Source: an uncultured bacterium (GTDB lineage Bacteria > CSSED10-310 > CAZUFC01). Taken from it: a stretch of 64,000 bases of DNA. Position 1 is the first letter of the stretch; every line of letters starts with the position of its first letter. Of this stretch, positions 6,500 to 49,697 are shown one piece after another. The stretch spans positions 16,963 to 80,962 of the forward strand of contig CAZUFC010000021.1 of the NCBI GenBank assembly GCA_964619725.1, read 5' to 3'. The notes beneath the pieces were generated by a model. The model saw only the letters and a list, made by a program, of their open reading frames with translations. It was not told the DNA's origin and made no database searches. A program made the position numbers and the translations under genes.

Positions 6500-8554
6500 A
6501 TGAAGAAGATGGGAGGCGTAGGACGAGGGATCAAGGGAATGTTGCCGGTCATAATTCTGCTTGCGGCAGGAATGGTTGGAGGGGCGGAAGGACCGCCGCC
6601 TTACGCAGCGCCGGAAATTTCCGCCGGCTCTTTAACGGGTGAGGAAATCCGGGTGTGGGAGGCGGCGCTTCATTCCATACTGCTGGAATGGGAGGATATG
6701 CGATTCAAGAAGGATTATGTGGATGATCCTTACAGGCTTGATGCGGTACAGAGGGCTTTGGACGATCCTGTATCGCTGATTGAGTGGAATTACGGATGGG
6801 ATGCGTTTTTACTGGAAGGCAAAGCGACAAGCGACATTTTGTTTCGGGCTGCCGGGGACTTGGATTGCGGCATAACGAAGAAGAAAGCCGGGAAGATTAT
6901 TCCTGACGACCATACGATAAGTTCCTGGACGAGATACGGTTTTACTGCTGAATGGAGCCGCAATTTTTCGTTGACCGAGCATGCCGTTTCAAATGCTTCG
7001 GAGGCGGTGAAGGCGGAAGCTCTTGGGAGTCTGACGGACGAGGAATTGGCGTTTTTACGGAGTTATCTGTTGTGCCGGTTCGAAGAGGAGGAAAAATTAG
7101 AGGGAGTGGAATGTCCGGAAGAGGAGGAGTACGGAGCGGATGAGATGTTTCTGGAGTCGATGGAACATTATGATATAGAGGCTTTGTTGAAAGCTGCCGT
7201 GAAGCTGGTCGGTGCGTTGGAGGAGCTGCTGCCCGGAATAGAGGAGTATGGAGAACAATGGGGAGTAGAGACTCAGACGATGATAGAGCGTGATTACGGC
7301 AACATTTTAATGGGGACGGAGGGAGATGACGTTTGGTTGATGGAAGAATGGGGGCCTGCTGCGATACTGATCGATCCGGGGGGAAACGATATTTATCGAG
7401 GTCAGGTCTGTGCTGCCGGAAATTTTATCGGGGAGAAGAATCCGCTGATAAGCCTGTTGATCGATATTTCCGGAGACGACACGTATATCGCCGAGGGAAA
7501 ACGCGCTGCAGGATCGGGCGTATTAGGCATAGCGGTTCATTATGATCTGGATGGGGACGATATCTACCGTTCGGGCAAATTCAGTCAGGGGTGTGGTCTT
7601 TTCGGCGTCGGCATACTGGATGATCGCCGGGGAGACGATATTTACTATGCCGATCTGCTGGTCCAGGGAGCAGGCGCTGCAGGCATCGGGCTGCTTCAGG
7701 ACTCTGCCGGCAGGGATAATTACCAGGCTGCTTTTTATGCTCAGGGTTTCGGTTACACCCTGGGATGGGGTATGCTGACGGACCGTGACGGGTACGATCA
7801 TTATTACGCAGCCGGGAAATACGACGCGTGGCCGACCTGGGGGACCTGGATGCTGAGTTGTTCTCAGGGGTATGCATTCGGAATACGCCCTGTCGCAAGC
7901 GGCGGCATTGGAATATTGCATGACCGGAACGGAAAAGATTTTTATTCGGCGGAAGTTTTCAGCCAGGGAGGCAGTTACTGGTACGGCATTGGAGCGCTGA
8001 TCGACGACAATGATAATGATCAATATACTGCAGGAGTATATTCGCAGGCAGCGGGAGTTCACCTTTCTGCGGGCATTCTGCTTGATCGGTCGGGTAATGA
8101 TGATTACACATGCGATCATCAGGCCCAGGGTTTCGCTCACGATTTCTCCGTCGGCTGGCTGATTGATGAAGCGGGAAACGACAATTACAGCGCCAAAACC
8201 AACGCACAGGGCTGCGCGGTTACAAACAGCACCGCGGGAATAATCGACAGAGAGGGCGACGACGGCTATCTGTGCCGGGATGCGAAAAAAGGATCGAGTT
8301 ACGGGGAAACGACGAGAGGATACGGCAATATTGGGATACAGATCGATATGAAGGGTAGGGACAGCTACTCTTATCCGGAAGCGGGCGACGGAAAATGGTG
8401 GACCTTGCAATCATGGTATGCCGGCATTGATGTCGGTGATGACTGGTATGTTGTGGAAGATTCAAAGCAAAAAACAGATGAAGAGACCGGCGTTAAAGTG
8501 GAACCGCCTCGCCGGCTTATTATCCCGGGAATTGACGATCAGGGAGGTGAATAA
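6500..8554 (+). CDS. Secreted protein with tandem DxxGxDxY...QG repeats (possible Ca-binding beta-solenoid)
   Basis: Signal-peptide-like N-terminus; many D..GDD.Y/D..GND.Y...QG.G repeats; GGAGG RBS. Confidence 0.75.
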   Translation: MKKMGGVGRGIKGMLPVIILLAAGMVGGAEGPPPYAAPEISAGSLTGEEIRVWEAALHSILLEWEDMRFKKDYVDDPYRLDAVQRALDDPVSLIEWNYGWDAFLLEGKATSDILFRAAGDLDCGITKKKAGKIIPDDHTISSWTRYGFTAEWSRNFSLTEHAVSNASEAVKAEALGSLTDEELAFLRSYLLCRFEEEEKLEGVECPEEEEYGADEMFLESMEHYDIEALLKAAVKLVGALEELLPGIEEYGEQWGVETQTMIERDYGNILMGTEGDDVWLMEEWGPAAILIDPGGNDIYRGQVCAAGNFIGEKNPLISLLIDISGDDTYIAEGKRAAGSGVLGIAVHYDLDGDDIYRSGKFSQGCGLFGVGILDDRRGDDIYYADLLVQGAGAAGIGLLQDSAGRDNYQAAFYAQGFGYTLGWGMLTDRDGYDHYYAAGKYDAWPTWGTWMLSCSQGYAFGIRPVASGGIGILHDRNGKDFYSAEVFSQGGSYWYGIGALIDDNDNDQYTAGVYSQAAGVHLSAGILLDRSGNDDYTCDHQAQGFAHDFSVGWLIDEAGNDNYSAKTNAQGCAVTNSTAGIIDREGDDGYLCRDAKKGSSYGETTRGYGNIGIQIDMKGRDSYSYPEAGDGKWWTLQSWYAGIDVGDDWYVVEDSKQKTDEETGVKVEPPRRLIIPGIDDQGGE

Positions 8555-9681
8555 TGCGCCGAAAAGCCGTTATCCTGTTTTTATGCAGCGCCGTTGCGGT
8601 ATACATGAGCGTTGTTTTTGCCGGATCGGAAAGTGAAGGGCGTAAGTCGGAAATAGAAGATGAGGTCCGATCTCCGGATCAAATAGAGGTCATTCGTGAC
8701 GGGGAAATCGTCGAAGATGCCGTATTGGAACTATTCATCAATGCCAGCGAATGGGACGACGAGCATCAGGACGTGAGGTACGAAAGCGAAGAGAAACTAG
8801 TTGAGCTGGGAGCTCGGATATTGCCTGTCATCCTGGAAAAATATCTGTCGTCCAGGGACCTCAGAAGACGTATTACGCTGGATTCCATCGTTAGTGAAAT
8901 AGGCAGTCCTGCTGCAGATTCTCTGCTGGAATATCTGAACAGTGAAGATATAACTGCCCGGCGGCATGCCGTTTATCTGCTTGGTGAGTGTACCTTTGTC
9001 GAAACGATGGAAAACGATGCCTTGTTGGGCCCCCTCCAGGAAGACTTGAAAATTAGAGATGCGCTTTTGAAAACCTTGAATTCAGAAAATGATCACAAGG
9101 TGATCAGGTCTCTGTTGAATTCACTCGCACGAATCAGAGACCCGGACCTTATTGAAGTGATTGCGGGTTATCTCAATCATGAAGATCAAACGCTGAGATT
9201 ATCCGCTGCTGTCGCCTTAAAATATATTCCGCACATCGATACCGTTAAACGGCTCCTCAATGCCCTTGATGATCCGCTGGGCACCGTTCGTCAGGCTGCG
9301 GCAGTCAGTTTATCCGCTGATGCCGTCGCAGATGCAGGATTCGATTTGATAATAGACCTGGAAAATGGAAGAGAAATCAATTCTGCGGCAAACGCCTTTC
9401 GCTTTGAAATCCTTACGGATTATCTGAAAAAAAACAGCGATAAAGATTCAGAGAATCTGCGATGCCAAAAAAACAAAATATGCCGGAAGGCTGAAAGCGT
9501 TTTACATCCGAATTCAAATGCCGGCTGGAGACTCAAGGCATATGCCGCACGCGCCGCAGCATTCTGCGAAAACAGGCAGAACGCTCTTAATATGCTTCAG
9601 GGTTTGTTGAAAAAAGAGTCTCATCCGTTTTTGACCGGCGCCGTGAGACAGACTCTTGAATATCTGGAACAGGAAAATTAA
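8554..9681 (+). CDS. Exported HEAT-repeat protein
   Basis: Signal peptide; repeats such as ARRHAVYLLGE, LRLSAAVALKY, VRQAAAVSL; TAATG coupling to the upstream gene. Confidence 0.8.
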   Translation: MRRKAVILFLCSAVAVYMSVVFAGSESEGRKSEIEDEVRSPDQIEVIRDGEIVEDAVLELFINASEWDDEHQDVRYESEEKLVELGARILPVILEKYLSSRDLRRRITLDSIVSEIGSPAADSLLEYLNSEDITARRHAVYLLGECTFVETMENDALLGPLQEDLKIRDALLKTLNSENDHKVIRSLLNSLARIRDPDLIEVIAGYLNHEDQTLRLSAAVALKYIPHIDTVKRLLNALDDPLGTVRQAAAVSLSADAVADAGFDLIIDLENGREINSAANAFRFEILTDYLKKNSDKDSENLRCQKNKICRKAESVLHPNSNAGWRLKAYAARAAAFCENRQNALNMLQGLLKKESHPFLTGAVRQTLEYLEQEN

Positions 9682-9693
9682 AAACGTTTTATC

Positions 9694-9722
9694 TTGACTT
9701 GCTATTGCTTTGATGATATTCA
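9694..9722 (+). promoter_or_regulatory. Putative sigma70 promoter of the DHH-Sm-Clp1 unit
   Basis: TTGACT-17 nt-TATTCA with an extended -10 TGn. Confidence 0.45.
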
Positions 9723-9753
9723 TTCCTGCTCATTTGGAAAGGATTGAGCGACA

Positions 9754-11043
9754 ATGAAAATAAAAAAAGAAAAAAATGAAAACGACGACTTTAAAACAAT
9801 AACAAAGAAGATTGAGAATTCAGGGAATAAAAAAGTTGTTATCTTTTCGCATGATGATCCTGACGGAATAACTAGCGCCATAATGTTGAATCGCCTGTTG
9901 AAAAAAATCGGGGCTGTGGTGGAAGTTAAATTCCCCGAAGGTTTTGTATTGACGAGTGAGCAGGCGGCAGAAATGGGTGAGAATACGGATTTAATGTTCA
10001 TATTGGATAAAGGGACATTCAAGTCTTACGATCAATTTTCCGGGTCTGCAAAAAAGGTGATTATTATAGATCATCATCCGCCGGGAGATTTGCCTGAAAA
10101 AGCGTTGTTTTATAATCCGTCGAAGTATGAATATACTCGATGTTCCAATTCGGCAGTGATTCGGCGTTTTATAGAAACGATAAATACGGCGGACGTCTGG
10201 GATGATTTTTACAGTTTGATGGGACTGACGGGCGATTTTGCGGTTAACTCTGTAACGGAAGAATATGCTGAATTTGATAGTGAATTCGTGAAGCGGATGC
10301 GGGAAAATTTTAAAAATTTATTTCAGCCGACCGTCCAGCGTCCGACTATGTTTGAAGTTGAGCAGCGGGAAAAGACGAGTCTGCTGCATCAATTGACGGA
10401 GGTTGTTCATGCTGTGAGCGGCGGAGGATTCCAGTTTTTTTATTCCGAGCGTGATCCCCGACTGCAGGATATTGATCCGCCAACCTACATATTCAAGCAA
10501 TTGAGCAGTTTGATGAATTCCGGCGAAGACCCCAAATCATGGGAATCGGTTGATCAGTTTATCGCTGCCTTACCGAATCCTGAACCGGGTCGTCTTATGT
10601 ATGATTTTTACCTTCAGGATTGGGATTATTACAGCCAGTTGATTGATGCCGTTATTCCGCTTGCGAAGATCAGGGATGAGGAGATTTTTCTTTTCTGCTG
10701 CGAAAACTTCAAGTTGGGGCCGATGATAGCTCCGGTGAAGCTGCATGAACTGCATCGGAACAGGCAATTCAAAGAAGCTTTGATCATCATGTATAACATC
10801 AAAGCCGATCAGGATCGTTTTTCATTCCGGACATTCCCGGGCTCTAAAACTGTAGATGCGGACCTGCTGGCCAGGCAGTTGACGCAAAATCTTAAACAGA
10901 TCGATTCTTCGGGTAATATTGCAGGAGGAGGGCATCCGGTAGCTTCGGAATGCACTGTCGTTTCCGATAAGCTTACTCCTAAAGACACATTGAAGGCATT
11001 GTTTGAAGAGATAGAGAAGTTAAAAAGCGCATTAGAAAAATAA
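9754..11043 (+). CDS. DHH-family phosphoesterase (DHH + DHHA1-like)
   Basis: Motifs HDDPDG, ILDKG, IIDHH, GLTGD and C-terminal GGGH. Confidence 0.85.
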   Translation: MKIKKEKNENDDFKTITKKIENSGNKKVVIFSHDDPDGITSAIMLNRLLKKIGAVVEVKFPEGFVLTSEQAAEMGENTDLMFILDKGTFKSYDQFSGSAKKVIIIDHHPPGDLPEKALFYNPSKYEYTRCSNSAVIRRFIETINTADVWDDFYSLMGLTGDFAVNSVTEEYAEFDSEFVKRMRENFKNLFQPTVQRPTMFEVEQREKTSLLHQLTEVVHAVSGGGFQFFYSERDPRLQDIDPPTYIFKQLSSLMNSGEDPKSWESVDQFIAALPNPEPGRLMYDFYLQDWDYYSQLIDAVIPLAKIRDEEIFLFCCENFKLGPMIAPVKLHELHRNRQFKEALIIMYNIKADQDRFSFRTFPGSKTVDADLLARQLTQNLKQIDSSGNIAGGGHPVASECTVVSDKLTPKDTLKALFEEIEKLKSALEK

Positions 11044-11119
11044 AGAAAATTTTAAAAAGCATCAGACGATTCTACAGCAATTTGTCGGATGGCGAACCAG
11101 AAAGTGATGAGGTTGAACG

Positions 11120-11527
11120 ATGACATGGAGCGAATCTGATTTTCCAAAACTTTTGGATGAGTTTTTGCGAATAATAAAAAGCGATCATTCAAATTCGTTT
11201 AAAACAGGATATATTGAACTGGCCCTGAATTGGCAAAACATTGCGCCGATTTATCCTGCGATTATTTCCGAGGTGGCGGCTAAAGCTGAAAAGCATGTTA
11301 GTGTCAATGATTTGAAGAAGGGGTGTATCGTTTCCGTAAAAAGGGGAGATGTCAAGATCACGGGTAAGTTTGAAGGTCTGGAAGAGGGTAAGATGAAATT
11401 ATCTGAGGTTACTGAAGAGAAGCGTCATGATTCTTATTTTGTCGATGCGGACGACGACGTTTTGATGTTGGACAGGGATGCATTTTATGAAGATTGGTCC
11501 ACTCTCGAACCCAAAGAAATAGAATAG
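11120..11527 (+). CDS. Small protein with a possible Sm/LSm- or SH3-like beta-barrel
   Basis: LKKGCIVSVKRGDVKITGKFEGLEEGKMKLSEV resembles the Sm1 pattern; GAGG RBS. Fold call is inference. Confidence 0.6.
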   Translation: MTWSESDFPKLLDEFLRIIKSDHSNSFKTGYIELALNWQNIAPIYPAIISEVAAKAEKHVSVNDLKKGCIVSVKRGDVKITGKFEGLEEGKMKLSEVTEEKRHDSYFVDADDDVLMLDRDAFYEDWSTLEPKEIE

Positions 11528-11550
11528 TGAAAGCAGATGGTGTGAATACA

Positions 11551-12792
11551 ATGAACAAAAAATATTTAAAACAGATTAAAGGCCCTGCGGAAATAGAAAT
11601 ACTCAAAGGAAAAGTTGAGATAATAGGATATCCTCATGAGCGCGGATACCGCTTATCGATTCCCCCCGGAAAATCAATCCCGTTAGCGCTGGATTCAGAA
11701 GATCAGATAAGATGCGAAACGGAAAACGAAGAGAACATAACGAATTTAAAGAGTTTTACTATTCCCCAGACCTGGCTTGAGATAGTAAAACGGATAAAAG
11801 AGCAGAAGCTTCGCAAGATATTGGTATTAGGCGAAATGGACACGGGAAAATCGTTTTTTTGTACCTATCTGGCCAATTCTCTGCTCTATTCGGGGCTGGA
11901 ACCTGGAATTCTGGATTGCGATCTGGGGCAATCGGATATCGGACCTCCCGGAACTCTCGGTTTCCTGAAAGTCGTCCGTCCCCTGACTTTTATTAATGAA
12001 TCAGACCCGACGCTCCTGGGCTTCATCGGCGCTCATTCTGCCGGTTTGCACATGCTAAAGGTCATAACGAGTTTTCACGGGTTGGTGACCAAGGCCATGA
12101 AGATGTGCAGTACGCTGATCGTCAATACTTCAGGCTGGGTCAACGAAAGCGGAAGGGCTTTAAAATGGGCGAAAATAGAATTTATGGACCCGGATTTAAC
12201 TGTCTTTCTGCAGAGGGAAAACGAGTTGGAGCACCTTTATAAAATGGTTCCAGAGGAGAAAGCCTTCAAACTGCATGTAAAAATCAAAAAAGGTTTAATC
12301 GCTACCAAGGCGGAAAGAAAAAATCTCAGAGAAACGGCATCCAAAGCTTACTTCAAAGATAGCGGGGAAAAGAGCTTTTCCTTTTCAGAGTTTACTGCGG
12401 TCGGAGCTTTTTTAGGGTCCGGAACCTTTCGAAGCGATCTTGAGAGGCGGCCGGAAATAGTTCATGCTGAAATACTGCCGAGTTTCGAAGGCGCTTATAT
12501 CGTGGTGAAAAAGGATACGGACCCGGAAACGATCCAGAAAATCAAAAAAGAATTCAGGACGACCAAGGTAATTGAAGAAGGATACGAAAAGGGGACGCTG
12601 ATAGGGCTGGCGAACTCGCAAAACGTATGTTCAGCTTTGGGCATAATAAAGAAAATTGACTGGAACGCCAAGGTTCTGCATTGCGTTACTCCTTTGAAAA
12701 GCTCTGAACCTATAAAATTTGTTCATTTCGGTTCTTTGAAATACAATTTTGCAGGTGAAGAAGCAGGCTTCCTGGCTCCGGGTTCCATTTGA
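11551..12792 (+). CDS. Clp1/Grc3/Nol9-family polynucleotide 5'-hydroxyl kinase
   Basis: Walker A GEMDTGKS, DCDLGQSDIGPPG, NTSGW, lid ERKNLR; N-terminal KGPAEIEILKGKVEIIG segment like archaeal/eukaryotic members. Start placed at 11551 (track: 11494). Confidence 0.88.
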   Translation: MNKKYLKQIKGPAEIEILKGKVEIIGYPHERGYRLSIPPGKSIPLALDSEDQIRCETENEENITNLKSFTIPQTWLEIVKRIKEQKLRKILVLGEMDTGKSFFCTYLANSLLYSGLEPGILDCDLGQSDIGPPGTLGFLKVVRPLTFINESDPTLLGFIGAHSAGLHMLKVITSFHGLVTKAMKMCSTLIVNTSGWVNESGRALKWAKIEFMDPDLTVFLQRENELEHLYKMVPEEKAFKLHVKIKKGLIATKAERKNLRETASKAYFKDSGEKSFSFSEFTAVGAFLGSGTFRSDLERRPEIVHAEILPSFEGAYIVVKKDTDPETIQKIKKEFRTTKVIEEGYEKGTLIGLANSQNVCSALGIIKKIDWNAKVLHCVTPLKSSEPIKFVHFGSLKYNFAGEEAGFLAPGSI

Positions 12793-12987: not shown

Positions 12988-13323
12988 CCGGAGTAGCGGT
13001 TCGGTTATATTTGTGTGATGAGTTTCCTTCATCCTCACCGATTCGGCGGTGGACAGATTGAGGTTGAAAACAGATTCGTTCTGGGTTTTCTTAACGGCCG
13101 AAGCGTAACTTCAAATGAGCAGAAGATTTTTAATTTGTCGAAAAATTAAAAATTTCCTGTTCGCGATTACAATTTTCAAGCTAAAGGAGGAAGGAGATTT
13201 CAACCGTATACCCGTCGAAGAAGCGAAAACGGCAGCTTGTGGATCAAAAAGGGACGTATACAAAAATAAGGTCAGACGGGGCTTCCTGCAGGCGTCTGCG
13301 GTTCACTGCGCAGAACATCATAT

Positions 13324-14838
13324 TTATTCAATCATAAATGCGGCGACATTCAGATCACCCAGCGCTTTGTAAGTTTCCGGCTCCGTCAGTAATGCATAAA
13401 AGTGGAAAGGACCTCCTGCCGCAACATCGCCGGGCATTTCGAAATCCAGCAGCGTCATCCTTTGCGGGGTTTTCTCTTCCAGGTGTACGCTTGTGGTCTG
13501 AGGAGTCTGAGTATAATCAGGATGGAAGAAAAAGGAGCCGTTTGCTTCAAAAAGGAGGTATAAATCGGCTGATCGGTCGGGGTAATAATTTGACAGTACG
13601 ATATCCAACCGGAAGTAATCCCCGGCCCTGTAGACGGTCCGGTTTAAATGCAGGTGAGGCGTCAATCGCCTGTCCGCTTCAGGGCCGCCGTACGCTCCGA
13701 TATCGCTGCGGCTGCCGTCGGGGTCTTCAAATTCAGGGTCTCCCGCATCCACAAGAACACTGTCTCTTTGGGGATGAAAATCAGTTGCCGGAGTAAAACC
13801 GGGATGCTCGAACAAATTATGCTCGCCCAGAGAAACGCCTTTGTTGTCCTCTTCATTATCATAAAATAAATTAAAATCGATCGAACTCGAATAGAACCCC
13901 GCTCGAAAGGCTCCGACCTCCGAACATTCCGTTATAGCGTTATTGACGATGCATATCGAGGAACCTGGAATAGGAATCAGATTGTCGGTGTAATAGATGC
14001 CGCGACTGCACCTGTTAATGACATTATTGATTATATCTGCCTGAACGACCATTTCCAGTCTTACTCCTTCATGCGCAGGGCCGGCTGCGTCTGCGGCCCT
14101 GGTTATAACGTTGTTCGTGAAGTTGAAATACGGTACGCCGATGTTTTGTATCGCCGCTTCACCGTTGTTTTCAAAAAGGTTCCGTACCGCTTCGACTTCA
14201 GCCGAAGGATAACCGAAGACGCTAACTGTTTTAATGCCGTCTGCGCCGTTGTCAGCTATTGTGTTGTCGTGGAAAGAAGCCTGTTCGACATTATATGTGT
14301 CTATGCCTGTGTTGCCGTTGTTCAGAATGCGATTTTCATGCATTCGGACTGATGCGCCCGTGCTTAAGACTCCATTGCTTCCGTTCCGTGCGACGGTATT
14401 ACGGATCATCACCAGGCTTCCTTCTCCCAGGCAATCGACTCCGTCATCATCGTTTTCGTATATGTAATTATCGATAAGCATAACATCCGAATTTTCAGCA
14501 TCTACCCCATCGTCTGACGAACCCGTTATATTGAATCCGGTCAACTCCAGCTCCGCGTTTCTTATGCTGATTACGTCATCAGCGGTATTCTCTCCGTCAA
14601 TCACCGTGGTCCCGTAACCTTCGCCTTTTATTGTCAGCTCCTTCTCCTCAACGGTCACCCCGCGACCGTAAGACCCTGCCGCTACATGAATCGTATCGCC
14701 GTCTTCTGCAGCATCCACAGCGGCCTGAATCGTTGGATACTCATCAGGCACATAACGGTCCGCCGAATGAACAGAAAAAGCCAGGGCAATAATCGATGAC
14801 CCAAAAAACAGTTTCCGCAGTATAATATAAGCCTTCAT
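13324..14838 (-). CDS. Secreted right-handed parallel beta-helix protein with C-terminal beta-sandwich-like domain
   Basis: VPDEYPTIQAAVDAA start, N..DG repeats, DPDGSRSDIGAYGG; GGAGG RBS. Confidence 0.85.
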   Translation of the reverse strand: MKAYIILRKLFFGSSIIALAFSVHSADRYVPDEYPTIQAAVDAAEDGDTIHVAAGSYGRGVTVEEKELTIKGEGYGTTVIDGENTADDVISIRNAELELTGFNITGSSDDGVDAENSDVMLIDNYIYENDDDGVDCLGEGSLVMIRNTVARNGSNGVLSTGASVRMHENRILNNGNTGIDTYNVEQASFHDNTIADNGADGIKTVSVFGYPSAEVEAVRNLFENNGEAAIQNIGVPYFNFTNNVITRAADAAGPAHEGVRLEMVVQADIINNVINRCSRGIYYTDNLIPIPGSSICIVNNAITECSEVGAFRAGFYSSSIDFNLFYDNEEDNKGVSLGEHNLFEHPGFTPATDFHPQRDSVLVDAGDPEFEDPDGSRSDIGAYGGPEADRRLTPHLHLNRTVYRAGDYFRLDIVLSNYYPDRSADLYLLFEANGSFFFHPDYTQTPQTTSVHLEEKTPQRMTLLDFEMPGDVAAGGPFHFYALLTEPETYKALGDLNVAAFMIE

Positions 14839-40534: not shown

Positions 40535-40714
40535 GATTCCCCTGCTGAGTTCGTGATGAGCTGGAAAATATTGAGCCAACACTTAATAAAAGGGAGCTTG
40601 AGTTTGAAAACAGCGGACATGCCTCTTTCGGGAGGACTTCCAAAATTTTCAACAGGGCGCCCACCTGGTTTTCCAGGTTCAATGACTCCGTTCACACGGC
40701 TCAAGCGGGGGATT
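40535..40714 (+). ncRNA. ssrS: 6S RNA
   Basis: Between zapA and rny; closing stem tcccctgctgag / ctcaagcggggga, central bubble, ttgagcc...cccacc...ggttcaa elements. Confidence 0.85.
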
Positions 40715-40962
40715 TATTCTATCTTATATTCGCTTTTTCCTTTGACGGAAAGCTGAGACTCTTCATTTTTTTCTCATAGACTGGTCGAAGATACTTAAGT
40801 AAATCCGCCTCCCAAAGTTGTCTGGACGATGATAATGACCGCAGTTAATTCAAGAGGTTGGATTCATAGTTGTATATTTTTTATTTCATCAAGCAAAGAA
40901 AGAATAATAACTGGAAGGCCGGAGGAATCGGAATTATTCCAACTCTAAGGAGGTGACTTCAG

Positions 40963-43671: not shown

Positions 43672-43768
43672 GGAAGCGGAAGAGTCCTGGTGGGCTCTCT
43701 GGACTTCAAATCCAGTAACGGGCTCTAGAAAAGTCCGTGGTGGGTTCGATTCCCACACGCTTCCGCCA
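43672..43768 (+). tRNA. selC: tRNA-Sec(TCA)
   Basis: 6-bp D stem with 4-nt loop, CTTCAAA anticodon loop, long variable arm, GCCA end. Confidence 0.95.
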
Positions 43769-48299: not shown

Positions 48300-49574
48300 T
48301 TAATCTTTGCGTAAATTTTCGTTTCCGGGAAGAAGATCGAAAAGAATTGTCAGGATGGATGTGATGGGCAATAAATCGGATGATATATAGCATTCTGCAG
48401 AGTCTGGATATCCTGTCGTGCTGACGGCGCTGCTGGGGTCTGCGTCCCTGATTTTATTTTCTAGAGCTGTCGCCAATCTGTCGGAAAACAATTTGTTGTT
48501 TGGCCCAGGGCTTCTGAAAGAAAATTTGGCGGCTTTATCGGTAAGGTTGAGTAAAATATAAAGTATGCTCGTCAGCTCAGACTCACGTTTCAGCTCATGG
48601 GCTTTGACCGTCGCCAGCATGGGGCCTAATTTAATGTTTTCGCAACAGAAGAAATAATTTTCAGCCGTTTCGTTTTTGTTCAATCTGACGGATGCATCCA
48701 TTAATTTCTGATAATGCGACCAGTCCGCTAGAAAAAAATCGTACATTAATCGTCCGGGTTCGGGATTCGGCAGAGAGCAGATAAAATCATCCAGAACGTC
48801 CCAGGATTTGGGGTCTACGCCTGATTCAGACAACCGGTCCAGTTGATTGAAGATATAGGTTGGCGGATCCAGTTCGTGAAGTCGGGGATCGCGTTCCTTG
48901 TAAAAGAACTGGTAACCGCCCCCGGCTACGGCATGAATGAATTCCGTAATTCTGTGAAGCAAGGAACTGCGTTTTCTCTGATTGAGGTCGAAGACGGTGG
49001 CTTTTTCGCAATCGGGCTCGAACAGGTTCTCATATCTTTGACGGCTTTCATTGACGAAGTTCCTGGCGAATTCGGTATAATCGTCGGTAACGGTATTTAA
49101 ATTGAAGTCGCCGGTCAGGCCTACCAGGTTCAGGAAATCGTCAAAAATATCGTTTACTTCCAGGTGCTTGAGCAGTTTATGAACTATTGTCGAAACGGAA
49201 CAACGGCAGGAACCTGATGCATTCGGGTTCAAGATGATAGCCTTGTCGTAATCCGCTGCAGGCGTGTGATTGTCAATGACTACCACTTCTCCCGCCAGCG
49301 GCTGCAATTCATTATATTCGGAAAAGGACCCTTTGCCCACAATGAACAGCAGGTCGGGTTTATAACCCAGCGCCGCTATTTCCTTGGGCGTCAAAATGAA
49401 CTGAGGAGGAAGGCTCACTCTAACGAAGCTGTCGAAATTTTTCAATGCCTTCTTCAGCAAAATGCCGCTGATTATGCCGTCCGGATTGTCGCTTAGAAAT
49501 AAAGATATCTTCTTGTGTTGCGCATTTTTGATTATCTTGCTGACTCGCTCCAGCTCAGGAAATGTTTCGCTCAT
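48300..49574 (-). CDS. DHH-family paralog with degenerate catalytic motifs
   Basis: Shares GLTGDF, ERDPRL, DPPTYIF, LPNPEPGRLMYDF with 9754-11043 but has SDNPDG, VGKG, IDNH and TTGY. Start placed at ATG 49574. Confidence 0.82.
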   Translation of the reverse strand: MSETFPELERVSKIIKNAQHKKISLFLSDNPDGIISGILLKKALKNFDSFVRVSLPPQFILTPKEIAALGYKPDLLFIVGKGSFSEYNELQPLAGEVVVIDNHTPAADYDKAIILNPNASGSCRCSVSTIVHKLLKHLEVNDIFDDFLNLVGLTGDFNLNTVTDDYTEFARNFVNESRQRYENLFEPDCEKATVFDLNQRKRSSLLHRITEFIHAVAGGGYQFFYKERDPRLHELDPPTYIFNQLDRLSESGVDPKSWDVLDDFICSLPNPEPGRLMYDFFLADWSHYQKLMDASVRLNKNETAENYFFCCENIKLGPMLATVKAHELKRESELTSILYILLNLTDKAAKFSFRSPGPNNKLFSDRLATALENKIRDADPSSAVSTTGYPDSAECYISSDLLPITSILTILFDLLPGNENLRKD

Positions 49575-49697
49575 AATATCCACCGCCTTGATTCTAATCC
49601 TAAGCGCCGGAAACGATTCGCCCGGCGTTCGGCGCAAGGGCTTTTCATCATCCCTCTTCCTGCCGTTCTCCTGTCGATAAAAAGCCGGGATAAAAAA

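Follow-up and report, generated by a model that had tools for sequence, protein, structure and literature searches.

In eukaryotes, phosphorylation by the kinase Grc3 primes pre-rRNA for Rat1 (PMC5900568), and the kinase Rlg1 cooperates with Xrn1 in the decay of tRNA introns (PMC4102763). A survey of prokaryotic Clp1 proteins found them to be rare and scattered, with kinase activity documented in vitro only, and reported that Ts-Clp1 of Thermus scotoductus makes 5'-phosphate ends and prefers RNA over DNA (PMC6777427). The present analysis concerned a three-gene locus (positions 9,694 to 12,792) in a 64,000-nucleotide stretch of contig CAZUFC010000021.1 (hereafter the window), which belongs to an uncultured bacterium of the GTDB lineage CSSED10-310; CAZUFC01 (assembly GCA_964619725.1: 9.17 Mb, 344 contigs, 90.9% complete, and 6.5% contaminated). 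The locus encoded, in this order, a DHH-family phosphoesterase, a 135-aa protein designated MID, and a Clp1-type kinase. This triad is a real conserved unit spanning many bacterial phyla plus one archaeal phylum, and its grouping lay far beyond chance, as judged from the counts of locus linkage and phyletic co-occurrence given below. There is about an even chance that the unit phosphorylates and then degrades single-stranded nucleic-acid fragments and so feeds salvage, rather than serving heal-and-seal repair. With the triad, what Clp1-type kinases do in the cells of bacteria and many archaea becomes a question for a simple bench test.

The initial annotation of the window had not recognised this combination as a described system, and no paper describing it was found in the literature search either. 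In the literature covered, prokaryotic Clp1 proteins were connected neither with DHH/RecJ-like nucleases nor with any small partner gene, although a prior mention is possible; the available text of the main prokaryotic Clp1 survey contained no gene-neighbourhood analysis (PMC6777427).

Conservation of the DHH–MID–Clp1 unit

Proteins from the same candidate phyla were recovered with DHH and with Clp1 as query, in some cases from a shared contig (for example, locus tags HQM09_18735 and HQM09_18725, separated by one gene). The sequence neighbourhoods of Clp1 relatives were compared in 80 loci, a sample that consisted of the 80 best among 547 confirmed relatives and was thus biased toward close ones. 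Single-sequence phmmer detected a MID homologue in 54 of the 80 loci, and one profile round raised this number to 71; in each of the 71, the gene immediately preceded Clp1 and had its orientation. The longest Clp1 open reading frame (ORF) overlapped the MID stop codon or began at most 20 nt away in 65 of the 71 (with a 4-nt overlap in 18), although longest-ORF start calls may exaggerate these overlaps. MID was missing from nine loci, two of which (L064 and L076) had less than 100 nt of upstream sequence. MID plus Clp1 formed the conserved core of the unit.

The DHH subfamily of the window, membership in which was called at a profile score above 100 bits, was present in 50 of the 80 loci: (i) adjoining MID in 41 loci, directly in 36 of them and with over-long MID ORF calls overlapping the end of the DHH gene in L015, L036, L043, L079, and L081; (ii) 2.7 to 4.7 kb upstream, on the same strand and in the same tightly packed operon, in eight loci; and (iii) downstream on the opposite strand in one locus (L010). 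It occurred in none of the nine MID-negative loci. Eight MID-positive loci had less than 2 kb of upstream sequence, and the presence of DHH was not assessable there.

The initial annotation had named a lack of conservation in other genomes as grounds for giving up the unit; what was found instead was recurrence across the Clp1 tree together with co-occurrence within the genomes of one phylum. In a quick maximum-likelihood tree of the kinase, adjacent triads fell into at least five separate groups, namely Hadarchaeota, Hydrogenedentota, Mcinerneyibacteriota together with unclassified genomes, a large clade of Riflebacteria type, and the window itself; those of Hadarchaeota were basal to the bacterial ones, and the window kinase formed a long branch, its best identity being 40%. 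The co-occurrence was scored in two phyla, for the genomes of which completeness was not reported. Across 87 genomes of one bacterial phylum (that of genome G041), 43 had MID, 44 had Clp1, and 45 had DHH. The complete set was found in 40 genomes and was wholly absent from 39, while the other 8 had one or two of the genes (mostly contig-end fragments); the gene order by coordinates was DHH–MID–Clp1. Among 66 genomes of Hadarchaeota (the phylum of G042), MID was present in 21 and Clp1 in 24, and all 21 MID genes abutted Clp1. Within the window's own phylum, the unit was rare, and Clp1 was found in one of 13 other genomes.

Predicted kinase, nuclease, and partner protein

The kinase gene (11527..12792, + strand; 421 aa from GTG) is predicted to encode a polynucleotide 5'-hydroxyl kinase of the Clp1/Nol9/Grc3 type. 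It matched Pfam family CLP1_P at 5.3e-33 (114.9 bits versus a cut-off of 26.6, profile positions 1–187 of 188), while the flanking domains Cupin_NOL9 (21.4 bits, cut-off 27) and NOL9_C (13.5 bits, cut-off 31.6) remained under their cut-offs. The motif residues G102, D105, G107, and K108; D130, D132, G134, and Q135; T201, G203, and W204; and R264 and R268 were all present, and they were invariant or nearly so in 30 homologues; the motif names (Walker A GxxxxGK[ST], Walker B plus DxxQ clasp, TxGW, and lid RxxxR) are those used in the Clp1 literature, PMC6777427 included. Profile matches in the PDB included NOL9 (4e-23), human CLP1 (8hmy), Caenorhabditis elegans Clp1 (4ohv), and GRC3. The alignment began at query residue 18 for human CLP1 and at query residue 21 for C. 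elegans Clp1, and in the latter case it would thus cover the N-terminal domain. The Clp1-type 5'-kinase with all motifs that the initial annotation had claimed was recovered by these comparisons, and its archaeal/eukaryote-like N-terminal segment is probable from the alignment to 4ohv and the sub-threshold Cupin_NOL9 match.

The DHH gene (9754..11043, + strand) encoded a 429-aa DHH/DHHA1 phosphoesterase that was archaeal-RecJ-like. The Pfam DHH domain was matched at 4e-12 (47 bits versus a cut-off of 28.1), and the DHHA1 domain scored 18.8 bits, under its cut-off of 25.9; the DHHA1 signature (G391–G393 and H394 plus S357/R359) was nevertheless present and conserved, and the structure model had a C-terminal alpha/beta domain. 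The catalytic motifs were intact: H33, D34, D35, and D37; D85, K86, and G87; D106, H107, and H108; D161; and G391–G393 and H394. Every motif named in the initial annotation was thus located, and the motif positions of both the DHH and the Clp1 proteins were invariant or nearly so within their two families.

The model of the DHH protein (pLDDT 92.9) was compared with known structures by Foldseek. The best fold matches were archaeal RecJ/Cdc45 proteins, led by 7bjq (4.2e-15, TM 0.60) and followed by MjaRecJ2, PfuRecJ, and the cores of DrRecJ/bacterial RecJ, while NrnA/GdpP matches ranked lower at about 1e-9, some five orders of magnitude behind 7bjq. Sequence searches agreed with the fold in placing archaeal RecJ-type nucleases closest to the protein, which is modelled to fold like archaeal RecJ/Cdc45 nucleases and unlike NrnA. 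The best NCBIfam score was RecJ_archaeal with 58.3 bits (cut-off 360), besides recJ TIGR00644 (50.1 bits, cut-off 396.9) and GAN_nuclease (23.9 bits, cut-off 850). Given this distance from the RecJ_archaeal cut-off and its occurrence in bacteria, which are not known to have GINS or MCM, the protein represents a separate subfamily and is no orthologue of archaeal RecJ/GAN. The source genome held eight DHH matches in all, some RecJ-sized and some NrnA-sized (ORFs of 335 and 350 aa), so the triad DHH protein would be an extra, specialised enzyme.

Further DHH genes were recorded beside these comparisons. A paralogue of the triad DHH gene was located in the window at 48300–49637 on the − strand, where it stood alone, with a tRNA cluster on one side and a sulfatase gene on the other. 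It was 44% identical to the triad protein and nearer to it than any database protein, but it is probably an inactive pseudo-enzyme, since most catalytic residues were lost (H33S, D35N, D85G, H107N, and GGGH to TTGY). In Hadarchaeota, a second and more distant DHH/DHHA1 gene (about 470 to 490 aa) stood in tandem directly upstream of the triad DHH gene (L062 320–1798, L067 4759–6165, and L070 4561–6039).

The MID gene (11120..11527, + strand; 135 aa) had no Pfam family at E ≤ 1 and none in NCBIfam, and a word-based protein search with it returned nothing beyond itself; its relatives were recovered by phmmer/HMM searches on neighbouring ORFs and by a full HMMER scan. In the latter, which covered 1.84 billion proteins, 101 cluster representatives scored E ≤ 0.001, and the full-length ones were, with few exceptions, stand-alone proteins of 120 to 150 aa. 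MID belongs to a small family without a name, the genes of which immediately precede those of this Clp1 subfamily. Conserved in the family were the N-terminus and two motifs, PLYPGI and, near the C-terminus, WPxLxF, from which the window member diverged by having PIYPAI and WSTLEP at the respective sites.

The initial annotation had seen an Sm1-like pattern in MID; this was not confirmed as stated, and a weak fold likeness was all that remained of it. LSm proteins topped the MID structure list, with VIA Z ≤ 4.3 over residues 61–105, which was inside the noise range of the tool. In the MID model (pLDDT 80), three helices were joined by a meander of three strands and by a short helix at the C-terminus, so that only three strands stood against the five of the bent Sm/LSm barrel. 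Foldseek gave nothing at E ≤ 0.001 (best E 0.4), and the best score in the ESM Atlas was 0.82, below the meaningful level. The window MID was very acidic (pI 4.8), and a conserved basic RNA-binding surface was rejected for the family, because pI ranged from 4.2 to 10.5 in 53 members, with 31 below 6 and 19 above 8. With a noise-range Z, no Foldseek match, and a variable family charge, the label of Sm-like RNA binder is unproven for MID, and a role as protein–protein adaptor is at least as likely. A proposal that WPxLxF mimics the Las1/Pcf11 tail docking on the kinase was dropped, as the available text of PMC5900568 speaks of a Grc3 C-terminal tail and mentions no tryptophan (Trp).

One protein (P0196, 456 aa, from a single contig of 9631 bases) had the first approximately 49 residues of MID joined to Clp1 from about residue 79. 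It was not counted as a true MID–Clp1 fusion, since it came from one contig and looked like a deletion or an assembly join; a rare fusion would be the other reading.

Neighbouring genes in related loci

Two themes recurred around the triads of relatives, namely nucleoside salvage and DNA uptake. Of the 80 loci, 27 contained salvage genes. A single tightly packed operon was formed by these genes and the triad in Elusimicrobiota, Caldisericota, UBP18, and unclassified metagenome-assembled genomes (MAGs), with the order (TIM barrel, dNK-like)–DHH–MTAP-type nucleoside phosphorylase/PNP–(PfkB)–TIM barrel–dNK-like–(adenosine deaminase)–MID–Clp1, the stretch from DHH to Clp1 being found in this order in eight loci. 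The TIM-barrel product was weakly deoxyribonuclease IV-like (32 bits versus a cut-off of 333). MAGs of Lindowbacteria, Spirochaetota, and Endomicrobia had salvage genes followed by MID–Clp1, with no DHH gene in view. Five Clostridia-type MAG loci (L038, L047, L054, L058, and L089) contained Clp1 without MID, in the order transketolase fragment, PhoU-like DUF47 gene, two nucleoside phosphorylase genes, Clp1, HAD phosphatase, and PLD-like nuclease. The second theme was seen in the Riflebacteria-type clade (29 of the 80 loci), where the triad was preceded, on its own strand, by genes for ComEC and ComEA and for a separately encoded metallo-beta-lactamase domain of ComEC. In the UBP18-type operons L013, L014, and L017, a gene for a sensor diguanylate cyclase (sCache–HAMP–GAF–GGDEF, about 590 aa) stood directly after Clp1.

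Proposed function and alternative explanations

From the observed gene identities, motifs, linkage, and co-occurrence, we infer the substrates, the order of action, the polarity of the nuclease, and a physical complex as follows. Ends with 5'-OH would come from metal-independent RNases, toxins, and some nucleases; the Clp1-type kinase would use ATP to turn them into 5'-phosphate ends, and the RecJ-like DHH exonuclease would then digest the phosphorylated strand to 5'-mononucleotides. The kinase would have a dedicated partner in MID, an adaptor or regulator that would be made in step with it via the overlapping or abutting reading frames. The operons of other lineages would carry the products onward through the MTAP-type nucleoside phosphorylase, adenosine deaminase, and the PfkB and dNK-like kinases. 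RNA is the more likely substrate, and DNA is possible.

Fragments made by metal-independent RNases bear 5'-OH and 3'-phosphate ends. The 5' exonuclease activity of MjaRecJ1 is promoted by a 5'-phosphate, that of MjaRecJ2 was seen on 5'-phosphorylated strands only, and both enzymes are inhibited by a 3'-phosphate (PMC5615345). Phosphorylation by the kinase would therefore open the sole usable end of such a fragment to a nuclease of this kind. Decay after phosphorylation was favoured on the RecJ fold of the DHH protein, the 5'-phosphate preference of MjaRecJ1/2, the salvage context, the absence of RtcB from the related loci, and the eukaryotic precedent. Priming of 5'-OH fragments for decay had been offered in the initial annotation as a second possible use of the triad; this part fitted the evidence better than end healing did, with the substrates and the order of action as deduced above.

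Several points weighed against phosphorylation-dependent decay. (i) The salvage context was borrowed from relatives that were 30–42% identical, as no salvage genes lay beside the window triad and the genes flanking it recurred in none of the 80 loci. (ii) The MTAP-type phosphorylase and adenosine deaminase could serve the salvage of methylthioadenosine or 5'-deoxyadenosine instead. (iii) Archaeal RecJ relatives are described, in the literature available, as acting in either direction, and a 3'-to-5' nuclease would need no 5'-kinase. (iv) Thirteen MID-positive loci offered 2 kb or more of upstream sequence but showed no DHH gene nearby, which makes the nuclease a frequent partner of MID–Clp1 and not an obligate neighbour. 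(v) The closest same-phylum relative (G001, the one other genome of the window's phylum with Clp1) had Clp1 alone, with neither MID nor an adjacent DHH gene. (vi) The 80-locus set was dominated by one phylum (about 31 rows), so that the raw counts overstate independence. (vii) The activities of this Clp1 subfamily, the DHH subfamily, and MID are predictions.

An unlikely alternative was DNA end processing, in which kinase and nuclease would act on single-stranded DNA, such as DNA imported by competence or repair intermediates with 5'-OH ends. It drew on the position of the triad after ComEC/ComEA genes in the Riflebacteria-type loci, on the classical description of RecJ relatives as single-stranded DNA exonucleases, and on the deoxyribonuclease IV-like TIM barrel of the salvage operons, but the competence link was confined to that one clade of the Clp1 tree, where it may reflect inherited gene order, and competence genes were absent from the window; moreover, the genome had other RecJ-sized DHH genes among its eight matches, and the RNA preference of Ts-Clp1 (PMC6777427) spoke for another substrate.

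Recycling of mononucleotides and nanoRNA was given the same low probability. Here, the kinase would act on 3'-NMPs and di-/trinucleotides, and the DHH protein would act as nanoRNase or pNp 3'-phosphatase, together yielding 5'-NMPs. The salvage context would suit this scheme as well as it suits strand decay, and DHH enzymes of the NrnA/PAP-phosphatase type, which were among the lower fold matches, carry out such chemistry. The top fold matches and the length of the DHH protein (429 aa with an inserted helical region, versus about 320 aa for NrnA) were however of RecJ type, and the NrnA-sized DHH ORFs noted above already provide the genome with candidates for this task.

RNA end healing for repair had been the chief proposal of the initial annotation, as an alternative to Pnkp/Hen1: the kinase would supply the 5'-phosphate, the DHH protein would clear the 2',3'-cyclic phosphate or 3'-phosphate, and a ligase encoded elsewhere would seal the ends. 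Production of 5'-phosphate ends, as by Ts-Clp1 (PMC6777427), would fit the first step, and the second would be in keeping with the pAp 3'-phosphatase activity of some DHH enzymes, with the PAP phosphatase 8a8k and NrnA among the fold matches, although the DHH fold was of RecJ and not of NrnA type. The evidence on ligases ran the other way. The 80 related loci contained no homologue of RtcB, the one ligase family sought in them, and no ligase was found among the annotated recurrent neighbour families; the triad proteins contained no ligase or methyltransferase domain by Pfam, and no ligase domain by NCBIfam either. The source genome carried RtcB and RtcA on contigs other than that of the triad, and an Rnl-type ligase (PF09414) was not found in this genome, which was 90.9% complete. 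RtcB seals 3'-phosphate to 5'-OH ends. A 5'-kinase would hence work against RtcB by removing the 5'-OH that it needs, and the two types of pathway, RtcB and 5'-kinase, are contrasted in PMC6777427. Healing for ligation found no support in these results as the role of the triad and is considered improbable.

Mere neighbourhood by descent, with no joint function, is very improbable: the 13 assessable MID–Clp1 loci without DHH would agree with it, and so would the putative nature of complex, co-transcription, and activity, but the order recurred across five or more distinct clades, archaea among them, presence and absence matched across 87 genomes of one phylum, and the flanking genes differed between clades.

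Organization of the locus and other features of the window

The three co-oriented, closely spaced genes of the initial annotation were retrieved in the ORF map, all on the + strand. The DHH and MID genes were separated by 76 nt, while MID and Clp1 ranged from a 1-nt overlap to 23 nt apart, depending on the start chosen: Clp1 start candidates were TTG 11494 (the longest ORF), GTG 11527 (the 421-aa database form P0115, overlapping the MID stop by one base), and ATG 11551.

The intergenic leader (9694..9753, + strand) had been described as the triad's own promoter-like sequence. The −35-like hexamer TTGACT was present at 9694–9699, but the hexamer 17 nt downstream, at −10 spacing, was TATTCA and unconvincing, and the consensus scan listed no + strand promoter between 9600 and 9760; the leader was retained as a weak promoter candidate. 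Two upstream genes (6500–8554 and 8554–9681) had the same direction as the triad and ended 72 nt before the DHH gene, so transcriptional read-through into the DHH gene could occur. The sequencing runs listed comprised four DNA runs from a single study and none of RNA. A terminator-like hairpin with a T-rich tail (12988..13014, + strand), a consensus match only, lay about 200 nt past the Clp1 stop, and the gene downstream of the triad (13324–14838) was on the other strand and convergent.

The first upstream gene (6500–8554, + strand) encoded a 684-aa protein that matched no family in Pfam or NCBIfam, began much like a signal peptide, and contained numerous short repeats rich in Gly, Asp, and Tyr; its stop overlapped the start of the gene for a 375-aa HEAT-repeat protein (8554–9681, + strand). 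These two genes and the downstream beta-helix gene were rejected as members of the unit, as their homologues occurred in none of the 80 loci. Elsewhere in the window, a 6S RNA gene, which marks the host as a bacterium, was located at 40536–40715 (+ strand, 112.7 bits) and a selenocysteine tRNA gene at 43672–43768 (+ strand); the organism probably uses selenoproteins.

Comparison with known systems

The triad is a new prokaryotic combination of known enzyme families, with a proposed mechanism known from eukaryotes and a new partner family. If the decay pathway is true, it would be the first physiological role for a prokaryotic Clp1, and it points to a way in which uncultivated fermentative lineages may make use of nucleic-acid fragments with 5'-OH ends. 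A new small protein family, of about 90 clusters, emerges with the triad, and its place beside Clp1 is its sole known property.

Ts-Clp1 and Pyrococcus horikoshii Clp1, which phosphorylate 5'-OH oligonucleotides in vitro, shared the CLP1_P domain, Walker A, Walker B, clasp, and lid with the window kinase; most bacterial Clp1 proteins are a short form without the archaeal C-terminal domain, (PMC6777427), in contrast to the probable long three-part form of the window. The archaeal RecJ/GAN/Cdc45-like nucleases (PfuRecJ 5x4h, MjaRecJ1/2, and Methanothermobacter thermautotrophicus RecJCdc45 7bjq) shared motifs, fold, and a similar size with the window DHH protein, but its identity to them was only about 14–18% in structural alignments. 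The Pnkp/Hen1 and RtcA/RtcB systems likewise consist of enzymes that remodel RNA ends left by ribotoxins, and Pnkp also has a 5'-kinase; their ligase and methyltransferase domains were absent from the triad, the kinase of which belonged to a family other than that of Pnkp, and RtcB/RtcA were encoded elsewhere in the genome.

The closest parallels were Grc3/Nol9–Rat1/Xrn2 in pre-rRNA ITS2 processing and Trl1/Rlg1–Xrn1, in which the product of a 5'-OH kinase licenses a 5'-to-3' exonuclease (PMC5900568, PMC4102763, and PMC2948184), and the window kinase matched NOL9, CLP1, and GRC3 structures by profile. The differences were (i) a DHH/RecJ-type nuclease in place of an XRN-family nuclease, and a bacterial host; (ii) a new 135-aa protein as partner, with no Las1-like HEPN endonuclease in the triad; and (iii) a kinase–nuclease coupling that for the triad is deduced from gene linkage alone. 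In its boldest form, to which we give somewhat less than an even chance, the triad would represent an unrecognised pathway of many candidate phyla and Hadarchaeota, in which a Clp1 kinase bound to a new obligate partner hands 5'-OH RNA to a RecJ-like 5'-to-3' exonuclease feeding nucleoside catabolism, and it would thus be the prokaryotic counterpart, and possibly the forerunner, of Grc3–Rat1.

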